Below are positions 2,552 through 59,707 of a stretch of 64,000 bases of DNA, piece after piece. This DNA is from Bacteroidales bacterium (lineage in GTDB: Bacteria > Bacteroidota > Bacteroidia > Bacteroidales > VadinHA17), in NCBI GenBank assembly GCA_017882305.1, contig JADGPU010000001.1:7789-71788 (forward strand), given 5' to 3'. The notes under the pieces were generated by a model. The model worked only from the letters and a program-made list of their open reading frames with translations. It made no database searches and was not told the origin of the DNA. The position numbers were made by a program, and so were the translations under genes. How positions within the stretch are numbered: the first letter of the stretch is position 1; each line of letters begins with the position of its first letter.

Positions 2552-4492
2552 CTAAAATTTCTTAGCTTCAATACCGAATTTAAAGCCAGCTTTAACCCGC
2601 TCTATCAATTCAGGTATGATATCAGTATATTCACCCACAATACCAAAATCTGCATTATGAAAAATATGCGCTTTAGGATTGTGGTCTATGGCGATAATTT
2701 TTTCAGATTCTTTCATACCGGCTAAGTGTTGAATTGCACCGGAGACTCCAACCGCAACATATACTTTTGGACGGATGGTTTTACCGGTTTGTCCGATTTG
2801 TCTGGCATACTCAACAATACCTTCGTCAACTACGGGACGGCTACAGGCCCATTCAGCATTTATTCCCTGACTTTTTAATGCTTCAGCCAGTGCTTGTATC
2901 AAACCTAGATTATCACTTGTTGTCCCTCGGCCACCCGTAATAATAATATCAGCATCAAAAAGATTCTGTAAACCTCCCTCTCCTCTGACTGTTTTAATAA
3001 TTTCTACCACGAAATCTTTATGCTCAAGTACAGGGTTAAAGCTGGAAACAATGCCTTTCCTCCCCTCAACACGTTGCGGAACTTCAAATGTTCCGGCACG
3101 TGCGGTTGAAATCTGTGGACAAACAAAACCTAGAATTGTAGCCAATTTGCTTTCACCATAAGTTGGACGTCTGGATTCAAGAATTGGAGTATAAATAACT
3201 TTTTCTTTTTTATCTATGTACTCTCCAATTTCAAGCCCTGTACAGTCTGCTGTTACTCCACTATCAGTCTTCATGCCTATCCTGGGAGCTAATTCTCGTC
3301 CTGAGGTAGTTGCAGCAAAAAGAGCAATTTCAGGTTTTCTTTCCTTAATGACTTGTGCAAAAATTGATGAAAACGGAAGAACAAGATATTCCTCAAGCTT
3401 ATCATTTTCAACGAGAATAACCTCATCTGAACCATGTTCAATCAGAGTTTGAGCCAAAGATTGAACATTCTTCCCAATTACCAATGTAAGTACTTTGGTG
3501 TCGTTTCCTAACTGTGTTGCCAGGTCTCTGGCCGGAGTTAAAAGCTCGAGTGAAGGTCTGGAGATTTTACCATTAGTTACTTCAGCCCAGGTAATAATTC
3601 CTTTTGCTCCATTTCTGTAGTCTTTTTCAGGGAAATCCGGACGTTCAATTTCTTTTTTGGCTGTTTTCTCCTTCTTTTCTAAAACATTCCCGCCTTTTTT
3701 TAAGTTAGCGATTAAACTATCGACTAATGAAGCTTCATTATGACCTTCGGACATTGTTATAGGCGGACGTTCACTTACAATATTAACTACTTTTACAACA
3801 ATAGTAGGGGAACCGTTGATACCTATTTTTTCGGTTCCTAAACCAATATCATCAATTCCAAAAGTTGTTATGTTCAAGGTGCGGGCTTTTATGGCACCGC
3901 TTAATGAAGGTTTTCGGGGAGGAATTCCGGTTGGAGTCAATGATATAACACAGGGGATAGGTAACTTCAAAATTTGATATCCCCCTTCTATGATTCTTCT
4001 TGCAATTACATTTCCAGCACCATCAGCTTTTACGCTCTCTACAAAAGTGGCCTGAGGAATTCCGATATTCTCGGCTACTTGTGACGGAACATGTGCAGTA
4101 TCACCATCGCTGGTTTGCCGTCCGGCTAAAATGATAAAGGGGTCTTTAGAATCTTTTGAGAAGCCTAAGTGCTTAAGCATGGTAGAAATTGCCAGGCCGG
4201 TAGCATAAGTATCGCTTCCGCCAAGTTTACGGTCGGATAACAGGTAAGCTTCGTCATAGCCCATTGAAATAGCTGTTCTAAGGGAAGTCTCAAACGATTT
4301 CGGACCCATCGAGCAGACGATTAATCTGGCATCGGGATGTTGTTTCCTGAGCTGCAATCCGGCTTCCAGACCAAACTGACAATCAATATTTATTATTGAT
4401 TTTGCTTTTGTGCGGTCCATTAATCCATCTTCCCCCATTCTCATTTCGCTGGGGAGTGGCACTTGTTTTATTAAACTTATTATTGTTAAAGC
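2552..4492 (-). CDS. Electron transfer flavoprotein, EtfB-EtfA fusion
   Basis: ORF 2552..4615 trimmed to the Met at 4492 (MALTIISLIKQVP), because the upstream part overlaps ETF-QO. The N-half is EtfB-like (GRQTSDGDTAHVPSQVAE), followed by a K/E-rich linker. The C-half is EtfA-like (VAVGVSGAIQHLAGM, HNADFGIVGE). Confidence 0.85.
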   Translation of the reverse strand, partial: ALTIISLIKQVPLPSEMRMGEDGLMDRTKAKSIINIDCQFGLEAGLQLRKQHPDARLIVCSMGPKSFETSLRTAISMGYDEAYLLSDRKLGGSDTYATGLAISTMLKHLGFSKDSKDPFIILAGRQTSDGDTAHVPSQVAENIGIPQATFVESVKADGAGNVIARRIIEGGYQILKLPIPCVISLTPTGIPPRKPSLSGAIKARTLNITTFGIDDIGLGTEKIGINGSPTIVVKVVNIVSERPPITMSEGHNEASLVDSLIANLKKGGNVLEKKEKTAKKEIERPDFPEKDYRNGAKGIITWAEVTNGKISRPSLELLTPARDLATQLGNDTKVLTLVIGKNVQSLAQTLIEHGSDEVILVENDKLEEYLVLPFSSIFAQVIKERKPEIALFAATTSGRELAPRIGMKTDSGVTADCTGLEIGEYIDKKEKVIYTPILESRRPTYGESKLATILGFVCPQISTARAGTFEVPQRVEGRKGIVSSFNPVLEHKDFVVEIIKTVRGEGGLQNLFDADIIITGGRGTTSDNLGLIQALAEALKSQGINAEWACSRPVVDEGIVEYARQIGQTGKTIRPKVYVAVGVSGAIQHLAGMKESEKIIAIDHNPKAHIFHNADFGIVGEYTDIIPELIERVKAGFKFGIEAKKF

Positions 4493-4515
4493 CATTATTA
4501 CCGTATATCTTAATG

Positions 4516-6174
4516 TTACATATTTTGAAAATCCGGGCCATTGCCACCATTTGGTACTACCCAGGTAATACCTTTCCCCGGGGATTTTATATCGCATGTT
4601 TTGCAATGCATACAATTTTCAGCATGAATTCTTAGCTCTTTCTGACCGGCTTTGTTGATATGAAGTTCATATACCTCCGACGAACAATAGAATTGCTCAG
4701 GTGCTCCGTATTGTTCAATGTTAACAGCATCGAAATTTTCCTTGTCGTTAATGTGAAGATGTACAACCTGCTGTTCATCATGGTATACTCCTGAATGGTA
4801 AACATCGGTAGACTTATCGAATGTCAACACTTTGTCGAACTCCAATTTACCTCTAAACCGCTCTTTAAATGGTTTCTTTTTAAATTGACTCAATTTAAGT
4901 GTTGTCTGGTAATCGGCATGAGATCTCAATCTGCCAAAGAAACCTGCTCCACCGGTTATTAATTGAGTCGCAAAATGCAATCCGCCAACAATTAGCCCTT
5001 TTGTGAATCCCTGTCTGAAATTACGAACAGCGTACATTTCTTTGTGAATAGCACTGTTATTTACCAGGGTCTCATATTGCTGAAGGCTTTTTTCTGATGT
5101 GTCGTTGTTTGACAATGCATCGGCAGTGGCTTGTGCAGCTAACATTCCGGATCTGACTGCTAAATGTACACCCTTTAAGGCTGGCATAGCAAGCAATCCT
5201 GCGCTATCTCCAACGATTAAGGCATTGTCGACATATAATTTGGGTACAGCGTAATGGCCTCCTTCGGGAAGGGTCTTGGCTCCGTATTCCACCAATTTAC
5301 CGCCTTTTAAAATTTTAGAAACAAAAGAGGTGGTTTTCCATATCTGGAAAGCGTCATGAACATCGAAAGTCGGATCCTGGTAATCAAGTCCGACAACAAG
5401 ACCAATGGCTACTTTATTATCATTTAAGCCATAAATGAATCCACCTCCAAATTCATCATTATCAAGCGGATAACCCATGGTGTGGTAAACATGGCCAGCC
5501 TTAATATTACCTTCCGGGACTGTCCATATTTCCTTGCAACCTAAAGAGTAAACCTGCTCATTTCTCTCCTTGTCCAGGTTAAATTTTTTAATAAGCATTT
5601 TGGTCAGGCTGCCTCGTGTTCCTTCAGCAAAAATGGTAAGCTTGGCTTCAATCCATGTCCCGGACTGAAAGTTTTCCAACTGGTGTCCATGATGATCCAA
5701 ACCAGTATCTTTGGTTTTGGCGCCTGTTACTTTTCCGTCTTTGTACAAAATCTCATCTACGGCAAAACCGGTATATATCTCTACCCCTTTTTCCTCTGCT
5801 TTTATTGCTAAATACCTGCATATCTGACCCAATGAGGCGGTGTAATTGCCATTATTACTCATGTAGGGCAAATGAAATGGCAGGGAGATGGCTCTTTTTA
5901 CCGTGAGCAAAATCGTTTTGTCTTTAGTTACCTTAGCATTGAATGGAATCTCTGAGAAATCCACATCGGGCAACAATTCTTTAAAAACTGATGGTTTAAT
6001 TATTGCACCTGATAAAATATGACTGCCGATTGCACGACCTTTTTCTATAAGTAATATTCTTTTATTTTGGCCTCTTCGTTTTAAGATATCAGCCAGATGA
6101 ATTGAAGCGGCTAAGCCGGACGGACCACCTCCGATTATTAACACATCCGTTGATACGGTATCAATATAACTCAT
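4516..6174 (-). CDS. Electron transfer flavoprotein-quinone oxidoreductase (ETF-QO)
   Basis: 552 aa. N-terminal DVLIIGGGPSGLAAS FAD fold; C-terminal ferredoxin-like CMHCKTCDIKSP; GDSAG motif. Confidence 0.85.
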   Translation of the reverse strand: MSYIDTVSTDVLIIGGGPSGLAASIHLADILKRRGQNKRILLIEKGRAIGSHILSGAIIKPSVFKELLPDVDFSEIPFNAKVTKDKTILLTVKRAISLPFHLPYMSNNGNYTASLGQICRYLAIKAEEKGVEIYTGFAVDEILYKDGKVTGAKTKDTGLDHHGHQLENFQSGTWIEAKLTIFAEGTRGSLTKMLIKKFNLDKERNEQVYSLGCKEIWTVPEGNIKAGHVYHTMGYPLDNDEFGGGFIYGLNDNKVAIGLVVGLDYQDPTFDVHDAFQIWKTTSFVSKILKGGKLVEYGAKTLPEGGHYAVPKLYVDNALIVGDSAGLLAMPALKGVHLAVRSGMLAAQATADALSNNDTSEKSLQQYETLVNNSAIHKEMYAVRNFRQGFTKGLIVGGLHFATQLITGGAGFFGRLRSHADYQTTLKLSQFKKKPFKERFRGKLEFDKVLTFDKSTDVYHSGVYHDEQQVVHLHINDKENFDAVNIEQYGAPEQFYCSSEVYELHINKAGQKELRIHAENCMHCKTCDIKSPGKGITWVVPNGGNGPDFQNM

Positions 6175-6246: not shown

Positions 6247-7752
6247 TCATATTAATTTAAACCAGTCTACGTAACCGGAATCCTCTTTTTTTGGGAATTT
6301 GCAGTGATTGAATTCATTAGTACGTTGGTCATAGCAATAATCTTTCTTCCACTCATCCGCTTTTTCGACTGTCTGCCTGATAGCGTCAGTAATATATAAT
6401 AACTCATCATTCGTCATGGTTGGGTGAAGAGATAACCTTATCCAGCCGGGTTTCATTGAAAGATCTCCGGAGTCAATTTTATCTGTAATCTCTTTTGACA
6501 TCTTAAAATCAACATTTAAAAGGAAATGACCATAGGTGCCTGCACAGGAACACCCTCCTCTTACCTGAATCCCAAAATGGTCGTTAAGAAGGCTGGTAAA
6601 TAGGTTGTGATGTATATTATCAACATAAAAAGAGAAAACACCCAATCTATTCCTGATATCCGAAGCAAGAATGTGCAGATTTCTTATTTTTGATAACTCG
6701 CTGAAAGTTAATTCTATAAGCTCATTTTCTCTCTGATGTATCTTTCTTGTATCCATTTTTTCCTTAAGCTTAACTGCAAGGGCAGCTTTAATGCCTTGAA
6801 GGAATCCCGGAGTTCCGCCATCTTCTTTCACCTCAATATCTGTTATATAGCTGTAACCGCCCCATCGGTTCGTCCATTTTACAGTTCCTCCGCCAGGGCT
6901 ATCGGGAATATCGTTTTTATAAAGTTCTTTATTGAAAATTAAAACTCCGGGGCTTCCCGGCCCACCAAGAAACTTGTGAGGCGAGAAGAATATGGCATCA
7001 AGCTGATAAATCTTGTCAGCCGGGTGCATGTCAATGTCGACATAAGGAGCCGAAGCGGCAAAATCTATAAAACAATATCCGTTATGCTCATGCATTATCT
7101 TTGCAAGTTCATAGTATGGAGGGAAATATCCGGTTACATTGGAACACGATGTGAAAGAACCTATCAGCAATGGACGGTCTTTATACTTTACTATCTCTTT
7201 ACGCAAAGCGTCAGGATTGACTGTAAGATCAGAAGAAGGTTCTAAAACAACAACGTCAGCAAGTGTTTCAAACCAGGATGTGTGATTCGAATGATGCTCT
7301 GTATGCGTTAAAAATACAACAGGACGCTTTCCATTCGGAATATCTTTACATTTTTGATAATTTCCATCATTATAAGCACAGAATTTAATAGCCTGTTCAG
7401 GAACCTTTAATCCAAGGAGTCTTTGGAGTTTGGCAATAGCCGAAGTCATTCCGGTTCCGGTAAATATCAAAATATCATTATCATTGGCATTAACATGGTG
7501 CTTCACTATTTTCTGGGCGAGATGATAGGCATCAGTCATTGCCTTCCCTGTAGATGTTGATTCTGAATGTGTGTTCCCTACCATGGGACCAACATCTTCA
7601 GTAATCCTTTCTTCTATTGGTCTGTAAAGCCTTCCACTGGCTATCCAGTCTGCATAAACCAGTTTCCTGGTTCCATAAGGTGTTCTGATTTCTGCGTCAA
7701 TACCAATGATATTCCTCCTGTACTTTTCAAAATATATTTCAAGATCAGACAT
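6247..7752 (-). CDS. Aminotransferase class-V fold PLP enzyme (cysteine desulfurase-like)
   Basis: SPHKFLGGPGSPG (PLP lysine) and a VRGGCSCAGTYGH loop. The start is moved to the ATG at 7752 because 7753-7842 holds a terminator hairpin and a TAccTTTG box. Confidence 0.75.
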   Translation of the reverse strand: MSDLEIYFEKYRRNIIGIDAEIRTPYGTRKLVYADWIASGRLYRPIEERITEDVGPMVGNTHSESTSTGKAMTDAYHLAQKIVKHHVNANDNDILIFTGTGMTSAIAKLQRLLGLKVPEQAIKFCAYNDGNYQKCKDIPNGKRPVVFLTHTEHHSNHTSWFETLADVVVLEPSSDLTVNPDALRKEIVKYKDRPLLIGSFTSCSNVTGYFPPYYELAKIMHEHNGYCFIDFAASAPYVDIDMHPADKIYQLDAIFFSPHKFLGGPGSPGVLIFNKELYKNDIPDSPGGGTVKWTNRWGGYSYITDIEVKEDGGTPGFLQGIKAALAVKLKEKMDTRKIHQRENELIELTFSELSKIRNLHILASDIRNRLGVFSFYVDNIHHNLFTSLLNDHFGIQVRGGCSCAGTYGHFLLNVDFKMSKEITDKIDSGDLSMKPGWIRLSLHPTMTNDELLYITDAIRQTVEKADEWKKDYCYDQRTNEFNHCKFPKKEDSGYVDWFKLI

Positions 7753-7796
7753 AAAAGTAAGTTTATAACAGAAGAAATATTTAAACCAATAGACAG

Positions 7797-7804
7797 CAAA
7801 GGTA
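7797..7804 (-). promoter_or_regulatory. Bacteroidota-type -7 box, TAccTTTG
   Basis: The minus strand reads TACCTTTG about 45 nt upstream of the ATG at 7752. Confidence 0.45.
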
Positions 7805-7819
7805 ATCACTTTCAATTGT

Positions 7820-7849
7820 AAAAAAAGAGGCGCTGGATTCAACGTCTCT
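7820..7849 (-). terminator. Intrinsic terminator after the DsrE-like gene
   Basis: The minus strand reads AGAGACG-ttgaatccag-CGCCTCT followed by TTTTTT. The 7-nt stem has one mismatch. Confidence 0.55.
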
Positions 7850-7877: not shown

Positions 7878-8375
7878 CTATGTAAAAATTATCTGTGCAC
7901 CTTCTCCACCTGCAAGTTCATAAAACTCACCAACAGTCAGGATCCTGCTGACATGGTCACTAAGATCTTCCTTTTTTAACTTGAACATATCCACAGCAGT
8001 CTTACAGGCATATATCTTACCACCTCCTGCGGTGATCAGATCAAGAAATTCACTCACAGGAGGAATATCAAGTTTTTCCATTTGGCCCTTCATCATCCAT
8101 GAAGTGAATGCTTCCATTCCCGGAATAATACCTAAAAGTGTTGGCATTCTCATACCTCCGGGCAGACGTAACGCAGGGTTGCCTACAACTCCGGTATGTA
8201 GCTTATCCATCCTGTTTTTTGTTATTGCATCCATACCAAAGAATGTGAAGAAAAGGTTTGCTTCAAGTCCTTCCATAACTGCACCATTTCCCAATATCAG
8301 GGTAGCATAAACATCCTCAATTGAGCCTTTGGCGCAAATGAGACTTACTTTTTTTATTGGAAATTTTTGTTCCAT
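7878..8375 (-). CDS. DsrE/DsrF/DrsH-like family protein
   Basis: 165 aa. VSLICAKGSIEDVY and GGKIYACKTAVDMF resemble the DsrE-like sulfur-relay / 'peroxiredoxin family' fold. Confidence 0.7.
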   Translation of the reverse strand: MEQKFPIKKVSLICAKGSIEDVYATLILGNGAVMEGLEANLFFTFFGMDAITKNRMDKLHTGVVGNPALRLPGGMRMPTLLGIIPGMEAFTSWMMKGQMEKLDIPPVSEFLDLITAGGGKIYACKTAVDMFKLKKEDLSDHVSRILTVGEFYELAGGEGAQIIFT

Positions 8376-8396: not shown

Positions 8397-8708
8397 TTAA
8401 ACGCAACTTGCTGGTTTTGGTATCCCGGCTATTTTTGTCGCTTTTTTCAGGGGTGCCCCAGGAAAAAGCTGGTAGAACGTTTTAACATCAATTACTCCTG
8501 AGTGATTAATGCTCCTGATAGATAATGCTTCACCTCCGTTAAATCTGTTACGGAGAAACTCCATGATTGCATAATGCTGTCCTGTAAGAACAATTCCTTC
8601 TTCTTTAGCAATTTCAACTGCAATTTCTTTTGTCCATTGTGAAGGATTTGTAAAATATCCCTCTTCGTTAACATCTACTTTAACGTCTGCGTAAGTTTTT
8701 TGTGCCAT
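8397..8708 (-). CDS. TusE/DsrC/DsvC family sulfur-relay protein (TusE-like, single C-terminal Cys)
   Basis: 103 aa ending GIPKPASCV, the family's penultimate-Cys arm. There is no second Cys about 10 residues upstream. Confidence 0.85.
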   Translation of the reverse strand: MAQKTYADVKVDVNEEGYFTNPSQWTKEIAVEIAKEEGIVLTGQHYAIMEFLRNRFNGGEALSIRSINHSGVIDVKTFYQLFPGAPLKKATKIAGIPKPASCV

Positions 8709-8763: not shown

Positions 8764-9996
8764 TTAATTCTGTATTTTGCCTTTCATCGACATGTAATTT
8801 GTTACCGGAAGTCTTCTTGCTCTCAGGAGTATATTCCAGTATATCCATTTAAATAGTAGTTTTCCGAGGTGATTTAACCTCGACTCTTTTAATAATGAGA
8901 AGGGGCCAATGTAAGGTAAAGGATATAATCCGGGAAGAGGCTCAGTTGCATAATTAAAATCAATAAGGATACCCTTGCCAAAACCTGTCTCAATATAGCA
9001 ATTGGAGTGGCCATCAAAAGAAACAGTCAATGGTCTGTTATTTATGAATTCAATGATGTTTTTCTCAAGCACATCTGCCTGGAAATGAGCAACAGAGCCT
9101 GCTTTTGATGAAGGGAAATTCCCGGCATCTCCGATTACAAAGATATTTTTATACAATACTGACTGGAGGGTATTCTTATCGGCTTTAACAAATCCGAATT
9201 CATCTCCGAGACCACTTTTTGAAATCACGGGGTCGCCTGTATGAAGAGGTATTGAAACCAGACAGTCAAAAGGAACGTCTCTGCCACCGAAATCGAGTAT
9301 TTTTTTATTAGTGTTATCAACCTCACCCAGGAAGAAATCACTTACCAGGTTTATATTTTTCCTGCCAAGAAGAGATCCAAGCTCTTTGGATGCTTTTGGT
9401 TTAGTAAACGCACCTGATAATGGCGTGACATAAGTAATATTCACTTTATCGCGCATACCTTTGCTGGTAAAATAGTAGTCAGAAAGAAAGGCGAACTCCA
9501 ACGGAGCAACAGGGCATTTGATAGGATTATCAGCTATATTAATAACAAGATTTCCTCCCTGCCACGTCTTGAAAAATCCTGCAAGAGCTTCCGCTCCCTC
9601 AATGGTATAAAAATCAAATATGTTTTTCTGCCAAAGCTCTCCTTTTAAACCAGGAGTTTCTTCGGGACTGATTCTTGTTCCGGTAGCGATAATAAGGATA
9701 TCATAACCTATTTCATTACCATTAACAAGAGTTACATTATTCTTTGCTGCATCAATCTTTTCAATCTCACTATTTATTACTTCAACTCCCTTTGGAAAGA
9801 ATTTAAGGGTAGGTTTGAGAATTTCTTTTTTCTGATAATAACCAAAAGGGATAAACAAAAAACCTGGTTGATAATAATGATTCATTTCCTTTTCCACTAC
9901 AGTCACACTCCAATCATTACCTGGCAACTCTTTTCTCATCTTATTTGCCATTATTGTTCCGGCAGTACCAGCACCAAGTATTAAAAGTTTCTTCAT
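8764..9996 (-). CDS. NAD(P)/FAD-dependent oxidoreductase, sulfide:quinone oxidoreductase-like
   Basis: LILGAGTAGT FAD-binding site, IKCPVAPLEFAF, FVIGDAG, and a C-terminal amphipathic tail. Confidence 0.75.
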   Translation of the reverse strand: MKKLLILGAGTAGTIMANKMRKELPGNDWSVTVVEKEMNHYYQPGFLFIPFGYYQKKEILKPTLKFFPKGVEVINSEIEKIDAAKNNVTLVNGNEIGYDILIIATGTRISPEETPGLKGELWQKNIFDFYTIEGAEALAGFFKTWQGGNLVINIADNPIKCPVAPLEFAFLSDYYFTSKGMRDKVNITYVTPLSGAFTKPKASKELGSLLGRKNINLVSDFFLGEVDNTNKKILDFGGRDVPFDCLVSIPLHTGDPVISKSGLGDEFGFVKADKNTLQSVLYKNIFVIGDAGNFPSSKAGSVAHFQADVLEKNIIEFINNRPLTVSFDGHSNCYIETGFGKGILIDFNYATEPLPGLYPLPYIGPFSLLKESRLNHLGKLLFKWIYWNILLRARRLPVTNYMSMKGKIQN

Positions 9997-10008: not shown

Positions 10009-10026
10009 CTGTTAATTTATTAACAG
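10009..10026. promoter_or_regulatory. Candidate Rex operator, CTGTTAA-TTTA-TTAACAG
   Basis: Perfect 7+7 palindrome with 12/14 match to TTGTTAA-N4-TTAACAA. It lies 13-30 nt upstream of the ATG at 9996. Confidence 0.65.
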
Positions 10027-13789: not shown

Positions 13790-14128
13790 ATGAAAAAACT
13801 TATTTCATGTTGCGGATTGAATTGTGCCACATGTGAGGCACGAATTGCAACAGTTACCAACGATGATGAACTCAGAAAAGCAACAGCAGAAAAATGGAAA
13901 ACCATTTATAATGTTCCTGATATTTCACCGGCTATGATAAACTGCACAGGGTGCAGAGAGGAAGGGGTGAAGATAGGTCACTGGAGTACGTGTCAGATCA
14001 GAATCTGTGCCACAAAGAAAGGCTTTGCAACCTGTGGAGAATGCAAGGAGATGGACACTTGCAGTTTAATTTCGCCAGTTCATAAAAGTGTCCCGGAGGC
14101 ACTATTTAATTTGAAGAATTTGAACTGA
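13790..14128 (+). CDS. DUF3795-like Cys-rich protein
   Basis: 112 aa starting CCGLNCATCEA, with further CTGC and CGEC pairs. Confidence 0.65.
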   Translation: MKKLISCCGLNCATCEARIATVTNDDELRKATAEKWKTIYNVPDISPAMINCTGCREEGVKIGHWSTCQIRICATKKGFATCGECKEMDTCSLISPVHKSVPEALFNLKNLN

Positions 14129-14167
14129 TCTTTTCTAATACCATAACCCTGATTAAATTTTTCTTAA

Positions 14168-14599
14168 ATGGCAGAAAAAGAGAACCTTTTACTCACCGAT
14201 AAACAGATCTATCCCACTGATGAATATATCTTTTCAATAATAGGGGATATGAAGATCTTTTGGCAGAGTATTATGAACCACATGATCAATAACTATAAAG
14301 ATTCTGCCGGTGAGTGGAATTTTTATAATGACGGGAAAAGATGGCTTTTTAAGATGATCTATAAAAAGAAAACTATTTTCTGGGCCGGCATCTTAACTGA
14401 TACATTCCGGATTACCTTCTATCTTGGGAATAAGGCTGAAACTATAATTGAAAATAGTGACCTCCCTCAGAATATAAAAGAAGAATTCAGAACAGCCAAA
14501 AGATATGGTTTAATCAGACCTGTTACGTTTATTGTCAAAAACAAAACAGATGTCGATAATGTATTAAAAATGATTGATATAAAGAGTAAAATAAAATAA
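14168..14599 (+). CDS. DUF3788-like protein
   Basis: 143-aa ORF. The assignment comes from overall resemblance (WNFYNDGKRWLFKM) and is weak. Confidence 0.55.
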   Translation: MAEKENLLLTDKQIYPTDEYIFSIIGDMKIFWQSIMNHMINNYKDSAGEWNFYNDGKRWLFKMIYKKKTIFWAGILTDTFRITFYLGNKAETIIENSDLPQNIKEEFRTAKRYGLIRPVTFIVKNKTDVDNVLKMIDIKSKIK

Positions 14600-14618: not shown

Positions 14619-14754
14619 TAATTGTCTTGTTGTCTTACAGTCCTGCGGTCTTGCAGTCTTGGAGTATCTTTTATTGTTTTGCCCCCGCCTTGCGGGATTT
14701 CGTCACTTCGTTCCTCAACTTTTGCCATTTGCCATTTGACTTTTACCTTTCAAC
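14619..14754. repeat. Composite low-complexity spacer: 8-nt-period array, hairpin element, then 7-nt-period array
   Basis: Octamers ttgttgtc/ttacagtc/ctgcggtc/ttgcagtc/ttggagta (14627-14666). Heptamers cctcaac/ttttgcc/atttgcc/atttgac/ttttacc/tttcaac (14713-14754). Confidence 0.75.
14679..14724 (+). repeat. Dispersed hairpin element, copy 1 (CCCGC-CTT-GCGGG core)
   Basis: ttgcccccgccttgcgggattt...acttcgttcctcaactttt matches the reverse complement of 40486-40542, apart from a 4-nt versus 16-nt central segment. Confidence 0.8.
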
Positions 14755-14815: not shown

Positions 14816-14823
14816 TACCTTTG
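14816..14823 (+). promoter_or_regulatory. -7 box, TAccTTTG
   Basis: TACCTTTG abuts the Rex-type palindrome, 38 nt upstream of the ATG at 14861. Confidence 0.5.
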
Positions 14824-14840
14824 TGTTAATCTTTTAACAA
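14823..14840. promoter_or_regulatory. Candidate Rex operator, GTGTTAA-TCTT-TTAACAA
   Basis: 13/14 half-site match to TTGTTAA-N4-TTAACAA, ending 20 nt upstream of the hdrC-like start. Confidence 0.65.
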
Positions 14841-14860: not shown

Positions 14861-15568
14861 ATGGGAAAACTATACGATTCATTATTAGAAGATGTCAGGT
14901 TTGAAGAAGGACTGAATGCGTGTATGAATTGCGGAGTCTGTACTGCTATTTGTCCGGCTGCTGAGTTTTATAATTACGATCCCAGAAAAATTGTCGATGA
15001 AGTTCAGACGAAGGATGATGATAAAATTACTGAACTTTTAAAGTCTGAAACAATTTGGTATTGCGGTGAATGTATGTCATGCAAGACACGCTGTCCCCGA
15101 GGTAATGCTCCCGGATTGATAATCATGGCATTGCGATCGCTTTCACAGGATCTTGGGTTCTTTACAGAATCCGAAAAAGGAAGACAGCAGCTTGCACTTA
15201 AAAGGACCGTTGGCCATTGGATACTTACTTATGGATACTGTCTATATCTTGAGGGTGTCGGTACATCATTACATCCTGAACAGGGGCCTGTTTGGGACTG
15301 GATTCAGGATAACTGGAGCGACCTGTTTAAAAAAATGGGAGCTAATTATAAAGGGGATGGCCCTGGAATACTCAGGAGAATACCTGAAGAGGCGATGGAT
15401 GAAATCAGGGAAATATTTAAAGTGACCGGCGGAATGAAAAGATTTGAAAATATTGAAAAATTCTCAAAGAAAAAAGCCAAGGAATTAAATATGCAATTGG
15501 ATGAAGGTATTGAGAATGAGTACTTCCGGCATATCTATAAAACTAATAATGGTTCTCATACAAGATAA
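14861..15568 (+). CDS. HdrC-like 4Fe-4S dicluster protein
   Basis: CMNCGVCTAICP and CGECMSCKTRCP, in the helical-ferredoxin arrangement of HdrC. Confidence 0.8.
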   Translation: MGKLYDSLLEDVRFEEGLNACMNCGVCTAICPAAEFYNYDPRKIVDEVQTKDDDKITELLKSETIWYCGECMSCKTRCPRGNAPGLIIMALRSLSQDLGFFTESEKGRQQLALKRTVGHWILTYGYCLYLEGVGTSLHPEQGPVWDWIQDNWSDLFKKMGANYKGDGPGILRRIPEEAMDEIREIFKVTGGMKRFENIEKFSKKKAKELNMQLDEGIENEYFRHIYKTNNGSHTR

Positions 15569-15580
15569 TATTTTCAGAAA

Positions 15581-16642
15581 ATGATACTTGAAGGTAAAAA
15601 AGCCATTTGGAATGATTATCAGAAGGAAATTGCTGACGACAAATATTATTATGTAAGAAGCTGCGTAAGACAAAATTTTTTTCCCGGATCAGAAACAGCC
15701 TTTCTCAAAATAATGCGTGAGGAGCTTAAGAAGGATGTATATGAGCATCCCTGCCATACAACGTGCACAGGAATTGGATATCATGGCGATATTGTTCCTG
15801 TTGAAACTACAATGACTGTTGTTGCACGTCAGTTTGCCATAATGACTGAAGCCGGCTATGAGAACCTTTTACCATCCTGCATTACATCTTTCGGATTATA
15901 TACAGAAATACTGGATACCTGGCATCATTTTCCCGAGGTCGAGGAAAAAGTGAGACGACAACTAAGAAAAGCAACCGGCAGAGAATTCAGGAAACCAAAG
16001 AACCTGGCACATGCAAGTGATGTGATCTATAAATTCAGAAAGGAGATCGCCTCAAAAGCAAAATATAAGCTTGTAAATAAAAATACCGGAGAACCATTGA
16101 AAGTTGTTGATCATATCGGATGTCATTATGCTAAGATGTTCCCTTCCAAAGGAATTGGTGGTGCTGAATATCCTTATGTGCTTGCCGGGATGGTTGAGGA
16201 ATGGGGTGGGAACGTAATTGATTATCCTGAAAGAAGGCACTGCTGCGGATTTGGCTTCAGGCAATACCTTGTACAGGCAAACAGAGGTTTCTCTGTTGCA
16301 TGTTCAAAAGAAAAATTTGAATCGATGAAACCTTTCAAACCAGATATGATAATTACAAACTGTCCGGGTTGCCCAATGTTCCTTGACAGATGGCAATATG
16401 TTATAAATGAGATGGAAGGCAAAAGATATGGCCAGAATGAAGAAGGAATTCCTGTCTTTACATATGAAGAAGTAGCCGGACTTGTTCTTGGCTATGATCC
16501 ATGGGAGTTAGGTCTTCAGATGCATCAGACCGATTGCGAACCAGTTCTGGACAAGATAGGCATTGACTATTCCCCGGAAGATAAATATAATCTTAAAATT
16601 ATTCCATCATATTCAGAAAGTCGCAGTTTAATAAACGTTTGA
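15581..16642 (+). CDS. HdrB-like protein with CCG domains
   Basis: HIGCHYAKMFP, RRHCCGFG and ITNCPGCPMF form a CCG domain. The N-terminal half has a degenerate copy (CHTTCTGIG). Confidence 0.8.
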   Translation: MILEGKKAIWNDYQKEIADDKYYYVRSCVRQNFFPGSETAFLKIMREELKKDVYEHPCHTTCTGIGYHGDIVPVETTMTVVARQFAIMTEAGYENLLPSCITSFGLYTEILDTWHHFPEVEEKVRRQLRKATGREFRKPKNLAHASDVIYKFRKEIASKAKYKLVNKNTGEPLKVVDHIGCHYAKMFPSKGIGGAEYPYVLAGMVEEWGGNVIDYPERRHCCGFGFRQYLVQANRGFSVACSKEKFESMKPFKPDMIITNCPGCPMFLDRWQYVINEMEGKRYGQNEEGIPVFTYEEVAGLVLGYDPWELGLQMHQTDCEPVLDKIGIDYSPEDKYNLKIIPSYSESRSLINV

Positions 16643-16648
16643 TTGTTA

Positions 16649-17677
16649 ATGAGTAAGCATGTTATAGTCATAGGTGGTGGAGTTGCAGGACTTGAAGTTG
16701 CAGGTCAGTTATCTAAAGTCGGAATTGAAGTCAGCCTGATAGAAAAGGAATCAAAAACCGGAGGACACCTGAATAATTGGTATAAACTCTTCCCCGACAG
16801 GAGGAATAGCTCCGAGGTAAAGGAATACCTCAATGGAATTACTGCAAATAATGGAATTAACCTGATGACTGATACAACGATAGAAAAGTTTAACCGGAGC
16901 AGGAGCTGTTTTTCAATTACAACAAATGGAGGAAAAGAGCTGATCGCTGATGCAATTGTTGTAGCTACAGGTTTTGATCTATTTAAAAGCGCCAGGAAAG
17001 AGGAGTATGGTTATGGTATTTATGATAACGTCATTACATCTGCTGATCTTGAGGAGATGTTCAGGAAAGGAGAAATTGTACTAACTGACGGTTCTGTTCC
17101 TGAATCGATTGGAATCATACACTGTGTTGGCTCAAGAGATGAGAAAGTCGGCAATTATTATTGCTCAAAATTATGCTGTGTCACTGCAGTTAAGCAAGCT
17201 ATAGAGTTAAGAGAACATCTTCCTGAATCGAAAGTCTTTTGTTACTATATGGATATGAGGATGGGTGGAGCCTTTTATGAAGAGCTTTATCGGGAAGCTC
17301 AGGAAAAATGGGGTGTTAACTTCATAAGAGGCAAAGTATCTGAGGCAAGCGAGACAATCGAAAAAAAACTCATGGTAAAGGTCGAGGATACTCTTGCAGG
17401 GAGACCACTTAAAATGAATCTCGATATGCTGGTTTTAATGGCAGGCATGGAAATGTCAGCAGGTGGGGAAAAAGTTGCCGGTATGAGTGGCCTTAAAACA
17501 GGCGAAAACAGGTTTTTTGCTGCAGCCGATAATCATTTTGGCAGCAACAAAAGTAATATCGAAGGGATATTCTATGCAGGTACATGCACTGCGCCAATGA
17601 ATATTACCGAAACAATTTCACATGCACGGGCAGCTTTTACCGAGGTAATGGAATGGCTTAGAAATGGTAAAAGATAA
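16649..17677 (+). CDS. HdrA-like FAD-dependent oxidoreductase (short form)
   Basis: VIVIGGGVAGLE, and CVGSRDEKVGNYYCSKLCC, the HdrA CxGSRD...CSxxCC cluster motif. About 340 aa, lacking the ferredoxin and MvhD-type domains. Confidence 0.8.
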   Translation: MSKHVIVIGGGVAGLEVAGQLSKVGIEVSLIEKESKTGGHLNNWYKLFPDRRNSSEVKEYLNGITANNGINLMTDTTIEKFNRSRSCFSITTNGGKELIADAIVVATGFDLFKSARKEEYGYGIYDNVITSADLEEMFRKGEIVLTDGSVPESIGIIHCVGSRDEKVGNYYCSKLCCVTAVKQAIELREHLPESKVFCYYMDMRMGGAFYEELYREAQEKWGVNFIRGKVSEASETIEKKLMVKVEDTLAGRPLKMNLDMLVLMAGMEMSAGGEKVAGMSGLKTGENRFFAAADNHFGSNKSNIEGIFYAGTCTAPMNITETISHARAAFTEVMEWLRNGKR

Positions 17678-18023
17678 TATGGAAAAATTCGGATTTACCA
17701 TATCAAAAGGACGGCAGATCGACTATGAGTCCAATAACCGGAGAATAGCCGAGTACATTTTTGAGAATGAACCCAGCTTCAGACTATGCTTTGAATGTGG
17801 CGGTTGCTCGGCGACTTGTACTACCGCTAATTTTACAGGTTTTAGTCTTCGGGAACTTAATATACTGATTAAACGTGGCGAAAATGATCAGGTACGCAGT
17901 ACTTTAAAAAAATGCATGCTCTGTGGTAAATGTACCCTGGTTTGTCCACGAGGAGTCAATACCAGAAATATAGTGGTTCTGGCAAAACAAGCCTTTCAAA
18001 AATCGGATGAATATGAAATTTGA
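17664..18023 (+). CDS. Small HdrC2-like 4Fe-4S dicluster protein
   Basis: CFECGGCSATC and CMLCGKCTLVCP. The start overlaps the hdrA-like stop by 14 nt. Confidence 0.75.
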   Translation: MVKDNMEKFGFTISKGRQIDYESNNRRIAEYIFENEPSFRLCFECGGCSATCTTANFTGFSLRELNILIKRGENDQVRSTLKKCMLCGKCTLVCPRGVNTRNIVVLAKQAFQKSDEYEI

Positions 18024-19911
18024 TCCTTTCATAATACCATTTAATATTGGATTATACTTCATACTCATATATGTTGTATCAAGAAGTGTAATATGGTTCC
18101 GCGACCTCTCACGACCGGATAAGCTGAGGCTGCAACGTGGGTTCTTTGGTATAGCCTTTGGCCTGAGCCTTAAAGAAATATTTATGGAGAGTTTGATACA
18201 CAGGAAGATATTTAAAACAAATATCCGCCTGGGTTATATGCATATGAGCCTGGCTTTCGGCTGGTTTTTACTTATATTATTTGGCACAATTGAAGCTGAT
18301 ATTTTTAGCGCGAAACACCTTAATGCTCCTTATAAAGCTATCTTTTTCAGGTTCTTCAATCCCGATCATGGCAGGATGGGATTTGAGGCAGCTTATGGAT
18401 TTTTAATGGATCTGATACTTGCATTTATTCTGTCAGGATTATTGGTGGCTGTTTTGAAAAGGTTTTATTCGAAAATTGTCGGTATGAAGAAGACTACCCG
18501 TCTGAAGATGTCCGACAGAATTGCCCTTACTTCACTATGGCTTATCTTCCCCAGCCGTCTCCTAGCTGAAAGTTTCACGTGTGGCGCTTATGGTACCGGC
18601 AGTTTTCTTACCGGATCACTTGGAGCCTGGTTTGCAACATTCCTTCCGGCCCAACAGATGGCCTATCCTTTCTGGTGGCTTTATTCCATCTCTTTGGGAA
18701 CTTTTTTCGTTCTTTTACCGATAACAAGGTATATGCACATACCCACTGAACTATTCCTTATTTTTATGAGAAATTCAGGAATAAAAACCGGCGACAAGAC
18801 AGGTACATATTCAGAGGTTCAAACTTACTCCTGCTCTTCATGCGGAATATGCATTGATGCATGTCAGCTTAATTTTTCAGCAGGTATTACCAATATTCAG
18901 TCAGCTTACCTAATGAAGGCTATTCGTAATAACGATGACGTTTCTGAAATCGCTGATAACTGCCTGATGTGTGGCAGGTGCGATCAGAAATGTCCCGTGG
19001 GAATAGAACTTTCTCCAATCAGGATGATCCAAAGAAGGGCAGGTGAAGCTGAAAATGATTTCAGGAACATTTATAAAGGTTATTTCAGGAGCCGGCAGCC
19101 TATTATTTCAGAAAAAGCCATTGGTTCTTCAAATTATTCTTTCCTTCATGAAACAGATCCGGAAAAAGCTGACATTTTGTATTTTGCAGGTTGTATGACC
19201 CACCTGACTCCAACTATTAAAAATTCCATGATAAAAATTCTCGATGCCTCAGGAGTGAAATACAATTTTATTGATGAGCAGGGAGGTGTCTGTTGTGGAC
19301 GTCCGTTAATGCTTGCAGGACAGGATAAGGAAGCCAGGGAACTTATTAATTATAATTCGCAGATGATCTGGAAATCGGGCGCTCACACACTAATAACATC
19401 GTGTCCAATATGTTATAAAGTTTTTAAGGAGAGCTATTATCTTGATGTTGAGGTGCTTCATCACACACAATTTATTAAGATGCTCATCGATGAAGGATCT
19501 GTGAAATTGAATTTCTTACGCAATAAAGTTGTCTATCATTCTCCTTGCGATCTTGGAAGAGGATCAGGTGTCTATGATGAACCAAAAGAGGTTCTGAATC
19601 ATGTTTCTCGCCTTCAGAAAAGCAATTTCGAAGATGGAAATTCCCTTTGTTGTGGAGGAAGTCTTGCTAACATGAAAATAAGTTCTCAGAAGAAAAAGAA
19701 AATAGCTCTCGAAGCCGCTATAGAACTGACCAAAGATAACCCCGATATCCTTGCAACCGCCTGTCCTCTTTGTAAAAAGACTTTCTCAGCTGTTACAGAA
19801 ACAAGAGTCGCAGATATTTCAGAGATTGTGGCCGAAGCTTTAATTGAGAAACCCGTGAAAAAAAATAACATCAGCAATGTCAAATCAATAAGAGAGTTGG
19901 CAAATATTTGA
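18007..19911 (+). CDS. Membrane cytochrome-b-like (NarI/HdrE/DsrM-type) domain fused to an HdrD-like Fe-S/CCG protein
   Basis: The N-terminal ~260 aa have 5-6 helices with His in YMHMS and RYMHIP. These are followed by CSSCGICIDACQ and CLMCGRCDQKCP, then two CCG domains (GGVCCGRP/ITSCPICYK and LCCGGS/TACPLCKK). Confidence 0.8.
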   Translation: MNMKFDPFIIPFNIGLYFILIYVVSRSVIWFRDLSRPDKLRLQRGFFGIAFGLSLKEIFMESLIHRKIFKTNIRLGYMHMSLAFGWFLLILFGTIEADIFSAKHLNAPYKAIFFRFFNPDHGRMGFEAAYGFLMDLILAFILSGLLVAVLKRFYSKIVGMKKTTRLKMSDRIALTSLWLIFPSRLLAESFTCGAYGTGSFLTGSLGAWFATFLPAQQMAYPFWWLYSISLGTFFVLLPITRYMHIPTELFLIFMRNSGIKTGDKTGTYSEVQTYSCSSCGICIDACQLNFSAGITNIQSAYLMKAIRNNDDVSEIADNCLMCGRCDQKCPVGIELSPIRMIQRRAGEAENDFRNIYKGYFRSRQPIISEKAIGSSNYSFLHETDPEKADILYFAGCMTHLTPTIKNSMIKILDASGVKYNFIDEQGGVCCGRPLMLAGQDKEARELINYNSQMIWKSGAHTLITSCPICYKVFKESYYLDVEVLHHTQFIKMLIDEGSVKLNFLRNKVVYHSPCDLGRGSGVYDEPKEVLNHVSRLQKSNFEDGNSLCCGGSLANMKISSQKKKKIALEAAIELTKDNPDILATACPLCKKTFSAVTETRVADISEIVAEALIEKPVKKNNISNVKSIRELANI

Positions 19912-35220: not shown

Positions 35221-35287
35221 TAATTCTGAAGTAAAACTTTGCAAATAATTTTTACAGTGGACCGGAACCTTGTTAAAAGTAAGAAAT

Positions 35288-37339: not shown

Positions 37340-37372
37340 TAAAAAGTACGGAGCAAGGTGTGAGGAGTAAAA
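37338..37372. repeat. 7-nt-period array (5 units)
   Basis: agtaaaa agtacgg agcaagg tgtgagg agtaaaa. Confidence 0.6.
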
Positions 37373-37400
37373 AAATATTCATCATTTAAACCCTTATAAA

Positions 37401-43458: not shown

Positions 43459-43461
43459 ACA

Positions 43462-47043: not shown

Positions 47044-47366
47044 TTTACAGCATCTTTATAATCATCTTTAACACTTTTATCTCCAAGTTTGATCCCGAAA
47101 TGGTAGGTCCCTCTGATAAGTGCATGAGCTGCAACAGTAGATCCAAAGAAAAGTATCGGTATCGCTATCAGAGCTTTTGTACTTGCGTCGCTAAGTCCGA
47201 AATGGAAGACCACTCCAAGCAGTATGCTGCAGCATCCCAGTGTTACGGCTTTTGTTGCTGCCTGGAGTCTATTGTAAGTATCAGGAAGTCTTATTATTCC
47301 AATACAACCCAGGAGGTTGAAGATAATTCCGATTGTTATAAAAATCAGGCTGATCATATTACTCAT
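47040..47366 (-). CDS. mrpG: Mrp/Mnh antiporter subunit G (MbhC-like)
   Basis: LLGCIGIIRLPDTYNRLQAATKAVTLG matches the MnhG signature. Confidence 0.85.
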   Translation of the reverse strand: MSNMISLIFITIGIIFNLLGCIGIIRLPDTYNRLQAATKAVTLGCCSILLGVVFHFGLSDASTKALIAIPILFFGSTVAAHALIRGTYHFGIKLGDKSVKDDYKDAVK

Positions 47367-48107: not shown

Positions 48108-48108
48108 T

Positions 48109-49647: not shown

Positions 49648-49650
49648 ATT

Positions 49651-50423: not shown

Positions 50424-50429
50424 AAAGCA

Positions 50430-51032: not shown

Positions 51033-51047
51033 TTCAGCTTTAATTAT

Positions 51048-59021: not shown

Positions 59022-59039
59022 ATGTGAAACAAATCACAA
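59022..59039. promoter_or_regulatory. Candidate Rex operator, ATGTGAA-ACAA-ATCACAA, overlapping the rex start codon
   Basis: 12/14 half-site match to TTGTGAA-N4-TTCACAA. The GTG start of rex is at 59024. Confidence 0.5.
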
Positions 59040-59707
59040 AAAACATCATTAAAAACAGTCTGAAAAGGATTTTTCTTTACAGGGCATGCCTTGTGAGGCT
59101 AAAATTAATGGGAGTTGAAAAAGTCTTTTCTTATACTCTTGCAAATGAAACAGGTGTCACCTCTGACCAGGTAAGAAAAGATTTTTCTGAATTCTGTATA
59201 AAGGGAAATAAGCGTGGCGGATATAATATTAATGATCTGCTTGAAAAGATGGAAAAGTTATTCCACCGCAACAAAGATAATAATATTGTGCTAATCGGCA
59301 TGGGGAATATGGGTCTTGCACTTTCGAAGTACAGTAAATTTGTACAGCGTCATATGAATATTGTTGCAACCTTCGACATTGATCCTTTCAAACAGAAAAT
59401 GAGATCCGGTATACCGGTATATTCAATGAGCCGTTTGAAAGAAATCATTGACAGGTTCAGTGTTAAAGTGGCTATCGTTGCCGTACCTGAGATTTCTGCC
59501 CAGGAAGTTACCGATGAACTTATTCGGCATGGCATATCCGGAATAGTGAATTTTGCACCTGTACTATTAAAAGTGTCGCCGGATGTGATCATAAATAACG
59601 TAAACCTTTGCGATGAACTTGAAAGCGTTATTTATTATGTTCATAAACAAATTAAAGTTAATGGACTTAAAAACCTGGAGCTATTATACAGGGATATGAA
59701 ATATTGA
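59024..59707 (+). CDS. rex: Redox-sensing transcriptional repressor Rex
   Basis: N-terminal winged helix (LKRIFLYRACL...VTSDQVRKDFSEF...KRGGYNI) followed by a Rossmann fold (VLIGMGNMGLAL). Confidence 0.9.
   Translation: MKQITKNIIKNSLKRIFLYRACLVRLKLMGVEKVFSYTLANETGVTSDQVRKDFSEFCIKGNKRGGYNINDLLEKMEKLFHRNKDNNIVLIGMGNMGLALSKYSKFVQRHMNIVATFDIDPFKQKMRSGIPVYSMSRLKEIIDRFSVKVAIVAVPEISAQEVTDELIRHGISGIVNFAPVLLKVSPDVIINNVNLCDELESVIYYVHKQIKVNGLKNLELLYRDMKY

Follow-up and report, generated by a model that had tools for sequence, protein, structure and literature searches.

The 64,000-nucleotide stretch of DNA analysed here, referred to throughout as the window, comes from a Bacteroidales bacterium of the VadinHA17 lineage (assembly GCA_017882305.1, contig JADGPU010000001.1, positions 7,789 to 71,788) and carries at 14861-19911, on the forward strand, five co-directional genes whose products resemble subunits of heterodisulfide reductase (Hdr). 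They raise the question of what such an assembly might oxidise or reduce, and of where its electrons would go. In order, the genes encode an HdrC-like protein (C1), an HdrB-like protein (B1), a short HdrA-type flavoprotein (A), a small ferredoxin-like subunit (C2) and a membrane fusion protein (TMD), in which a NarI-like domain is joined to HdrC-like and HdrB/HdrD-like domains. The answer that we tentatively favour, while giving it somewhat less than an even chance, is a five-subunit, membrane-anchored Hdr-like complex in which the cofactors would form a wire from B1 to menaquinone and the substrate would be a thiol or persulfide.

The original prediction for this stretch, which was made from the letters alone, had described five tightly packed Hdr-like genes, and these proved to be real, with open reading frames (ORFs), strand and coordinates all in agreement. 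C1 and B1 are separated by 12 nt and B1 and A by 0-6 nt, followed by overlaps of 14 nt between A and C2 and of 17 nt between C2 and TMD. The order C1-B1-A-C2-TMD is found in 115 of the 117 loci that could be assessed, namely those with at least 3.5 kb upstream of TMD, over a GC content of 0.31-0.63 and with TMD identities to the window down to 34%. The arrangement is therefore not a chance juxtaposition, and the five genes form one operon. The departures from it are themselves informative. L082 (8612-11785; a metagenome-assembled genome (MAG) from NCBI with a TMD 34% identical) has A-C2-TMD only, and L137 (9019-12853) and its relative L141 have C1-C2-TMD-B1, with no HdrA gene in the 21-kb locus, whereas C2 and TMD occur together in every locus with enough sequence. 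From these variants it follows that C2 and TMD are the invariant core, that C1B1 and A behave as modules and that the flavin is dispensable. The variant operon of L137 and L141 is immediately preceded by an ElbB/DJ-1-family gene.

At the proposed input end, C1 bears the two CxxCxxCxxxCP motifs that had been ascribed to it and matches the dicluster ferredoxin families of Pfam; all eight cubane cysteines are conserved in at least 96% of sequences, and its score of 83 bits against the HdrC models lies under the equivalog cut-offs. B1 likewise scores under the cut-off of the HdrB model (139 bits against 450), compared with 16-41 bits for the GlpC and LdhH models, and the best hidden Markov model (HMM) matches of both B1 and A are Hdr subunits. 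The earlier description of B1 as a protein with CCG domains, in the plural, stands for its HdrB-like character and for its canonical C-terminal motif, but not for the N-terminal motif, which is reduced. Alignment with Methanothermococcus HdrB places C181, C221, C222 and an NCPGC pair in a complete C-terminal motif, in the half of the protein where the single Pfam CCG domain was detected, whereas three of the five HdrB cysteines (C28, C62 and C100) are left in the N-terminal motif, the equivalents of HdrB C41 and C81 being Thr and Ser. Five histidines (H68, H144, H178, H182 and H315) are invariant. The same reduced pattern of three out of five cysteines plus His is present in B1 of a cyanobacterial C1-B1-A-C2-B2-SQR-like cluster and in an HdrB-like protein encoded on an A. 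ferrooxidans plasmid, four genes 3' of a GcvH/LbpA-like gene, and the N-terminal CCG motif of M. smegmatis EtfD also misses a Cys. In the EMOs it is the distal cluster that varies, and their non-cubane clusters serve electron transfer only. Given the Cys-poor N-terminal motif of EtfD and the variable distal cluster of EMOs, the N-terminal motif of B1 can be assigned to a distal cluster. Among loci whose TMD is less than 55% identical to that of the window, median identity is 70% for B1, 58% for C1, 46% for both A and C2, and 44% for TMD. By this measure B1 is the subunit under the strongest constraint, as would be expected of a catalytic one, and its conservation together with its sHdrB1-like modified N-terminal motif leads us to take B1, provisionally, as the catalytic site.

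The flavoprotein A was expected to be a short HdrA of about 340 aa with a CVGSRD...CSKLCC motif, and this is what was found. Its ORF opens at TTG 16643, but translation probably begins at ATG 16649 and yields 342 aa, since a 342-aa protein of identical sequence is already recorded. Residues 5-335 align end to end with sHdrA of Hyphomicrobium denitrificans (PDB 6TJR; E 1e-58), and alignment with methanogen HdrA runs through the thioredoxin-reductase-like core only (E 1e-60). The invariant C159, C172, C176 and C177 make up a CVGSRD...CSxxCC motif that aligns with the cluster ligands of 6TJR. In A, the cluster-ligating HCVGSRD occupies the position that the second Rossmann glycine motif has in NAD(P)H-dependent relatives, and no NAD(P)H site was seen when the sequence was read alongside the established HdrA and sHdrA structures; the alignment to methanogen HdrA also leaves A without the N-terminal, inserted and C-terminal ferredoxin domains. 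The proposal that HdrA provides a flavin end for NAD(H) or ferredoxin consequently goes unsupported in a protein devoid of the NAD(P)H motif and of ferredoxin domains. The missing modules, and a variant operon that has no HdrA at all, suggest that the flavin serves as a hub midway along the wire and not as a port for a substrate.

On the membrane side, the 119-aa C2 is indeed a second HdrC-like ferredoxin, matching Fer4 families of Pfam, with two cubane motifs whose eight cysteines are all invariant. TMD is hydrophobic over residues ~1-260, followed by two cubane motifs and two complete CCG motifs, and all of its eight cubane and ten CCG cysteines are invariant. Its AlphaFold2 model, based on a 39-sequence alignment (pLDDT 87.9, pTM 0.84), has five long helices and short connecting helices after helices I and IV, which is the topology published for EMO. 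When the model was compared with the PDB by Foldseek, M. smegmatis EtfD/EMO (9OJN) was the sole whole-chain match (E 4e-20, TMq 0.67), and the next matches, LutA and HdrB, covered the CCG domain only. A multi-helix NarI-like domain fused to an HdrD-like module, as first described, is thus well founded. Three histidines (H65, H79 and H244) are invariant in the 39 sequences, and of these H79, where helix II begins on the cytoplasmic side, and H244, immediately past the end of helix V, correspond to H87 and H251, the heme bP ligands of S. aciditrophicus EMO (SaEMO), and align with the His pair of EMO-like outgroup proteins; conservation of heme-ligand histidines is thereby established at the proximal-heme positions. 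The distal-heme ligand position (SaEMO H233) is taken by an invariant Tyr226, where eight of ten EMO-like outgroup proteins have His, and R184, S227, Y242 and E248 are, with H65, further invariant residues specific to the TMD family. A direct quinone connection, which had been anticipated, remains the best reading of TMD in view of the proximal-heme histidines and the whole-chain match to EtfD/EMO, and the protein probably holds one cytoplasm-side heme b. As the proximal-heme ligands alone are conserved, its quinone reaction is probably uncoupled from the proton-motive force; in mycobacterial EtfD, which has a single heme, the quinone reaction has likewise been proposed not to be coupled.

We would picture the complex as follows. 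Electrons would leave the cluster site of B1 one at a time and pass through the two cubanes of C1 to HdrA which, with one [4Fe-4S] cluster and flavin adenine dinucleotide (FAD), is probably a dimeric hub as in sHdrA. From there they would cross C2 by way of its two cubanes, enter the non-cubane and cubane clusters of TMD and reach menaquinone through what is probably one heme b on the cytoplasmic side. B1 would be the catalytic site, and its substrate is most probably a thiol, a persulfide or another sulfane-sulfur species. Thermodynamics favours the transfer of electrons from thiol or persulfide donors to menaquinone, and the flow would accordingly run from a low-potential sulfur substrate to menaquinone, to be re-oxidised by fumarate reductase or a similar enzyme. 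In the lineage of the window, the operon would be under Rex control together with an operon for SQR, TusE and a DsrE2-like protein. There is a precedent for such a union, in that type II sHdr clusters pair C1B1A with EMO (PMC11094781).

For the soluble half of the complex, sHdr is among the closest known systems. Two arrangements have been published, shdrC1B1AHC2B2 (type I) and shdrC1B1AHB3-etfAB-emo (type II) (PMC11094781), and neither occurs without LbpA, lipoate-maturation genes and sulfur transferases alongside. The locus shares with them the C1-B1-A order, so that the sHdr-like gene order originally recognised does hold, as well as the short HdrA with FAD and a single [4Fe-4S] cluster and the non-classical N-terminal motif of B1; sHdrA 6TJR was the bona fide sHdr reference sequence in these comparisons. 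A separate C2 recalls type I, and an EMO-type membrane protein within the cluster recalls type II. Unlike either, the operon is without sHdrH, for which the overlap between A and C2 leaves no room here or in related loci, and without a soluble B2 or B3, the EMO-like protein following directly after C2. LbpA, lipoate-maturation genes and TusA are missing nearby, and the hosts are anaerobic Bacteroidota that are not known sulfur oxidisers. In contrast to type II, etfAB is not part of the operon in any of the 169 loci (2.47 Mb in total) in which we surveyed gene neighbourhoods, and the EtfB-EtfA fusion of the window is encoded 10 kb away on the other strand, as part of another operon.

For the membrane half, the nearest counterpart is the EMO/EtfD family. 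As in the S. aciditrophicus and M. smegmatis (9OJN) proteins, a single chain combines a five-helix NarI-like domain with a two-cubane HdrC-like domain and an HdrB-like domain, the proximal-heme His pair is conserved on transmembrane helix II and after transmembrane helix V, and TMD would probably share the single heme of mycobacterial EtfD. However, TMD is only ~16-25% identical to these proteins and nowhere has etfAB or acyl-CoA dehydrogenase genes as neighbours, whereas a Halobellus EMO-like gene, 22% identical to TMD, is beside etfAB. C2 always precedes TMD, as do HdrA, B1 and C1 in 115 of the 117 loci, and the distal-heme His is exchanged for Tyr. TMD also keeps ten CCG cysteines where the solved EMOs are one short; as a mark separating TMD from EMOs this set is weakened, since most EMO-like outgroup proteins of ~30% identity keep all ten too.

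HdrDE of Methanosarcina and DsrMK, which is found in sulfate reducers and sulfur oxidisers, offer another parallel, in that they combine a NarI-type cytochrome b with an HdrD-type protein carrying two cubanes and two complete CCG motifs and thereby connect quinones or phenazines of the membrane with a disulfide or trisulfide in the cytoplasm. The parts that are fused here are separate there, and those systems have no HdrA, C1B1 or C2 partners. Nor does the locus offer a CoM-S-S-CoB or DsrC-trisulfide system: the TusE homologue encoded nearby has one Cys, and Pfam scans of ORFs of at least 150 aa found no dsrAB or methanogenesis genes in the annotated window. The path from an HdrA-type flavoprotein through an HdrC-like domain and an HdrE-like cytochrome b to menaquinone is also that of QmoABC, but Qmo has two HdrA paralogues, lacks a CCG/HdrB module and serves AprAB, and there are no such genes here. 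Membership of a family with a non-sulfur function is settled in part. A function of the Lut, Glc or Glp type was rejected on HMM scores and on absent partner genes, the operon having no LutB/C, GlcD/E or GlpA/B homologues, yet the nearest solved relative of TMD, EtfD/EMO, is a non-sulfur protein.

The closest annotated relative of C1, B1, A and C2 is an uncharacterised cluster on a plasmid of Picosynechococcus sp. PCC 7003 (NZ_CP016476.1; L169, 8242-13982), the arrangement of which is C1-B1-A-C2-B2 followed by a gene for an SQR-like flavoprotein; our plasmid search turned up only this cluster and the orphan A. ferrooxidans HdrB-like gene. Its subunits are 47% (C1), 40% (B1), 44% (A) and 31% (C2) identical to those of the window, the B1 motif is the same, and sHdrH is missing, as is an LbpA gene nearby, but the cluster ends in a soluble HdrB/SdhE-like B2 rather than in a membrane fusion. 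Full-text searches found no paper describing the Bacteroidota operon, and the mentions of Hdr that they returned from studies of Alistipes or of the cockroach gut concerned methanogens or Desulfobacterota. In the literature searched the operon is thus undescribed, and while it resembles a hybrid of sHdr and EMO in its workings, it fails membership of both.

How widely this arrangement is distributed bears on what it could be for. The window has its closest relatives among uncultured Bacteroidales, which are represented by MAGs from fens, peat, lake sediment and soil, and 80 GTDB species carry TMD at 63-92% identity. A HMMER scan of 1.84 billion representatives added full-length TMD homologues at 34-52% identity, which group into about 30 further clusters at the 50% level, and below these identity falls to about 30%; two TM::HdrD proteins at that level (P0182 and P0196) lie on contigs that are short or uninformative for gene context. 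Scanning metagenomes with an alignment of TMD homologues gave at least 80 loci among at least 600 matches (GC 0.31-0.63), and thousands of homologues are present in peat, fen, lake-sediment, digester and human-gut metagenomes. Exact-sequence look-ups led to the cultured Alistipes communis (WP_278564110.1), whose copy is indexed in 1464 blocks of the assembly collection, to several Candidatus Alistipes species and to Bacteroidia and Sphingobacteriales MAGs, and the listing of protein homologues took in relatives at least 80% identical. Every taxonomically named member belongs to the Bacteroidota and, as far as sampled, the complex is restricted to that phylum. Public annotations are generic ('(Fe-S)-binding protein', 'FAD-dependent oxidoreductase', 'HdrA family protein').

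In the lineage of the window the surroundings of the operon add two further elements, a common operator and a set of sulfur-relay genes (Table 1). The palindrome TGTTAA-N4-TTAACA, which equals the published Rex box consensus TTGTTAANNNNTTAACAA, matches three times in the window against 0.38 expected, always in a 5' region. The site before C1 abuts a candidate promoter element, TACCTTTG, that fits TAnnTTTG, which we take to be the Bacteroidetes -7 consensus. Across the 169 loci there are 102 matches, of which 62 are on the 5' side of C1, most often at 33-42 nt from its ATG. This upstream site is present in 60 of 127 loci, at some 35-37 nt from C1 and with conserved arms and a free spacer, against a background of 0.006 matches per 150 nt, and a site also lies upstream of SQR in 15 of the 18 related loci that have SQR. 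The Rex-like operator was not found in distant lineages. Eight distant loci (L089, L090, L091, L095, L097, L100, L105 and L159) instead have a NarL-type two-component system directly 5' of the operon, consisting of a small membrane HisKA_3-type kinase and a NarL/LuxR-type response regulator (e.g. L105, 4982-6629), which suggests a different, lineage-specific control. For the lineage of the window we infer control of the hdr operon by Rex, responding to NADH/NAD+, with the Rex-family protein encoded in the window as the candidate binder of the operator. The hdr and SQR-TusE-DsrE2 operons would also be co-regulated there, judging from their proximity and shared operator. Rex regulons are broad, and the operator therefore supports a redox or respiratory role more firmly than a sulfur-specific one.

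The SQR, TusE and DsrE2-like genes themselves, which had been overlooked, lie 5-7 kb 5' of the hdr operon and form, with the ETF and ETF-QO-like genes, a group at 2.5-10 kb of the window. In related Bacteroidales loci the SQR-TusE-DsrE2 and desulfurase-ETFQO-ETF modules come and go independently, and both are missing around the operon where TMD is less than about 62-64% identical to that of the window. Linkage to sulfur-relay genes was accordingly rejected as a general property, SQR, TusE, DsrE2-like and desulfurase-like genes being near the operon in the lineage of the window only. The co-occurrence stands there, shared operator included, but it fails in distant lineages, and LbpA and TusA were found in none of the 169 loci. 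That the window holds no gene for a lipoate-binding protein, as first stated, is borne out by tblastn, which with GcvH/LbpA-like queries gave nothing better than E > 0.4; TusA was not found in the window by tblastn either.

It is against this background that the nature of the substrate has to be judged, and a number of points weigh against the thiol- or persulfide-oxidising complex that we favour. Outside the lineage of the window the operon lacks linked genes for a substrate, a carrier or a sulfur transferase, and in A. communis it sits among housekeeping genes. Neither LbpA/GcvH nor TusA genes were detected in the 169 loci by tblastn at E <= 1e-3 with E. coli TusA and GcvH and A. ferrooxidans GcvH as queries. 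Co-regulation with SQR may be due to a general redox regulon and need not mean that the two act in one pathway, since the Rex-like site is also found at the rex/hydrogenase region. B1, finally, could be an electron-entry port rather than a catalytic site, given that its modified distal cluster is similar to that of EMOs, which is degenerate and serves electron transfer only. Another reading, in which B1 and/or TMD would take electrons from a separate flavoprotein such as ETF or a dehydrogenase and deliver them to the quinone pool, seems to us decidedly unlikely. CCG proteins do work in this way in EMO, LutA, GlcF, GlpC and SdhE, the nearest solved structure is EtfD/EMO, whose non-cubane clusters are confined to electron transfer, the distal motif of B1 is degenerate like that of EMOs, and the window does encode a fused EtfB-EtfA. 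But in none of the 169 loci is the operon next to etfAB or to partners of the LutBC, GlcDE or GlpAB type, as the Halobellus EMO-like gene is to etfAB; the ETF of the window has its own ETF-QO alongside; the best HMM matches of B1 and A are Hdr subunits; and the extreme conservation of B1 suggests a substrate site. The original view, that HdrA forms an NAD(H) or ferredoxin end, is very improbable, also in a version in which flavin-based bifurcation or confurcation would link menaquinone and a sulfur substrate. Methanogen HdrA is a bifurcating flavoprotein, Rex-like control hints at a link to NADH/NAD+, and in L082, where A-C2-TMD occurs without C1B1, something must feed or drain the flavin, although C1B1 may be encoded elsewhere in that genome. 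HCVGSRD in place of the second dinucleotide motif, the missing ferredoxin domains and the operon of L137 and L141 that dispenses with HdrA all speak against it.

Among the readings that retain a sulfur substrate, a third type of sHdr, which would oxidise protein-bound sulfane sulfur to sulfite and use the EMO-like subunit in place of C2B2 or B3-EtfAB-EMO to pass electrons to menaquinone, is unlikely. The C1-B1-A core, short HdrA and B1 motif all match sHdr-like clusters, and type II clusters contain emo. SQR, TusE and DsrE2-like genes stand 5-7 kb 5' with a common operator in the lineage of the window, the cyanobacterial homologue cluster is followed by an SQR-like gene, and one five-locus clade has cysteate-synthase-like and SPT-like genes, possible consumers of sulfite, directly 3'. 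Such a system would nevertheless have to do without LbpA and TusA in every one of the 169 loci, although published sHdr is always found with LbpA, lipoate maturation and transferases, and without sHdrH; sulfur genes are absent from its vicinity in all distant lineages, and its hosts are fermentative anaerobes such as Alistipes. The corresponding physiology, a lipoate-independent, quinone-coupled 'type III' sHdr with which strictly anaerobic Bacteroidota, gut Alistipes among them, would oxidise sulfide-derived sulfane sulfur with menaquinone and fumarate as the sink, is equally unlikely. In this scheme the persulfide would arise at SQR, be handed on by TusE and DsrE2 and be oxidised at B1, and the resulting sulfite could feed the synthesis of cysteate and sulfonolipids, an idea that derives from the genes directly 3' of the operon in that one clade. 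The current might also run in reverse, in a menaquinol-dependent reductase like HdrDE or DsrMK for which B1, the complete CCG site of TMD or both would be the place where a disulfide, polysulfide or protein trisulfide is reduced, which is just as unlikely. TMD has the architecture of an HdrE plus HdrD fusion and retains the full ten HdrB/HdrD cysteines, which the structurally characterised EMOs do not, but this set is not diagnostic when so many EMO-like outgroup proteins share it. A TusE-family protein is encoded nearby, yet a homologue with a single Cys cannot form a DsrC-type trisulfide, and the Pfam scans of ORFs of at least 150 aa found no dsrAB in the window. Rex regulons often include electron-disposal enzymes, which would suit a reductase. 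Menaquinol, with a potential of about -74 mV, is however a poor donor for most disulfides and for polysulfide unless the proton-motive force drives the reaction, and the conservation of proximal-heme ligands only argues against transmembrane coupling.

Hdr-type enzymes with non-cubane Fe-S clusters are known from methanogens, where they are soluble or phenazine-linked, from sulfur oxidisers, as the lipoate-dependent sHdr, and from fatty-acid oxidisers, as the ETF-dependent EMO. The operon described here joins the catalytic core of sHdr and the membrane module of EMO in what would be a single wire, without ETF and, apparently, without lipoate proteins. If the substrate of the complex that we favour is a sulfur species, it would represent an unrecognised anaerobic sulfur- or thiol-oxidising respiratory input in the Bacteroidota, of relevance to the cryptic sulfur cycle of peat and to the way in which sulfide is dealt with in the gut. 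The cultured host A. communis makes the question directly testable, and a structure would reveal how the HdrA hub docks onto non-cubane domains and what effect the exchange of the distal-heme His for Tyr has.

Table 1 Genes and candidate regulatory sites in the window (positions are those of the 64,000-nucleotide stretch)
Feature	Position	Strand	Basis or context
C1, HdrC-like, two [4Fe-4S] motifs, 235 aa	14861..15568	+	Pfam Fer4_8, Fer4_17; HdrC models
B1, HdrB-like putative catalytic subunit, 353 aa	15581..16642	+	HdrB models; alignment to methanogen HdrB
A, short HdrA-type flavoprotein, FAD and one [4Fe-4S], 342 aa	16649..17677	+	Alignment to 6TJR
C2, small ferredoxin-like subunit, two [4Fe-4S] motifs, 119 aa	17664..18023	+	Pfam Fer4 families
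TMD, NarI-like domain fused to HdrC-like and double-CCG HdrB/HdrD-like domains, 634 aa	18007..19911	+	AlphaFold2, Foldseek, motifs
Possible accessory gene, predicted lipoprotein, 182 aa	20004..20552	+	93 nt 3' of TMD, same strand
Candidate Bacteroidetes-type -7 promoter element TACCTTTG	14816..14823	+	Read from sequence
Rex-box-like operator TGTTAAtcttTTAACA	14824..14839	+	Abuts -7 element; 22-37 nt upstream of C1 start codon
Second Rex-box-like operator	10010..10025	.	14-29 nt upstream of SQR start codon
Third operator-like site, 1 mismatch	58910-58925		Between hydrogenase-associated operon and Rex-family gene
Rex-family repressor gene, candidate regulator	59024..59707	+	Pfam Put_DNA-bind_N and CoA_binding
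Type III SQR	8764-9996	-	NF049943, 613 bits, cut-off 525
TusE/DsrC-family protein	8397-8708	-	TIGR03342, 75 bits, cut-off 53.5; single C-terminal (penultimate) Cys
DsrE2-like protein	7878-8375	-	Pfam PF13686; NF047629 below cut-off
Cysteine-desulfurase-like class-V aminotransferase, 531 aa, long N-terminal extension	6247-7842	-	
ETF-QO/FixCX-like protein, 552 aa	4516-6174	-	Pfam ETF-QO domains
Fused EtfB-EtfA, 687-aa ORF from TTG	2552-4615	-	Pfam ETF domains

Two of the neighbouring genes in Table 1 call for comment. The SQR gene passes a model for the selenoprotein subtype of type III SQR although its ORF is uninterrupted, and Cys presumably stands here in the place of the Sec of the model family. 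The true start of EtfB-EtfA is probably later than the TTG, since the ORF opened there overlaps the upstream gene.

Directly 3' of the operon, the predicted lipoprotein matches no Pfam or NCBIfam model. Its gene adjoins the operon in 66 of the 80 related genomes and in 31 metagenome loci, all within the lineage whose TMD is at least about 62% identical to that of the window, and it is a possible candidate member of the Hdr-like system. A different set of genes occupies this position in one clade of five loci (L093, L094, L110, L123 and L132; TMD 58-78% identical within the clade), where four same-strand genes follow the operon. These (at 11842-16311 in L110) encode an SPT/KBL-like acyltransferase, a threonine-synthase/cysteate-synthase-like pyridoxal phosphate enzyme, an SDR and a 366-aa protein, a set that resembles capB/capA/capC of capnine (sulfonolipid) synthesis, with all HMM scores below cut-off. 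Linkage to capnine-like genes was set aside as a wider feature of the operon, being confined to this clade; the window and the remaining loci lack such genes.

Immediately 5' of the operon, the DUF3795 (Cys-rich, 112 aa) and DUF3788 (143 aa) genes at 13790-14599 are probably unrelated passengers, since they occur in just 23 and 36, respectively, of the 80 related genomes. The intergenic stretch before C1 is 260 nt long, in a window of 36-42% GC, and this leader holds about five tandem GTCTTGNN-like octamers (14624-14665) and a TTTGCCATTTGCCATTTGAC repeat (14721-14750).

Towards the far end of the window, a region of the group-4 membrane-bound [NiFe] hydrogenase/Mrp type (46423-58831 on the minus strand, 59024-63253 on the plus strand) encodes NuoD/B/H-like proteins, MnhB/E, MbhD/E and antiporter subunits, AsrA/AsrB-like Fer4_22 and NAD_binding_1 proteins and a cNMP-binding protein, followed by the Rex, HypF and HypD genes. 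A CRP/FNR-like box (TGTGA-N6-TCACA, 58840-58855) lies just upstream of the start codon at 58831. Between this region and the operon, 33496-40473 and 42718-45546 encode a dense array of PAS/GAF/PocR sensor histidine kinases with response regulators and a LytTR-type two-component pair.

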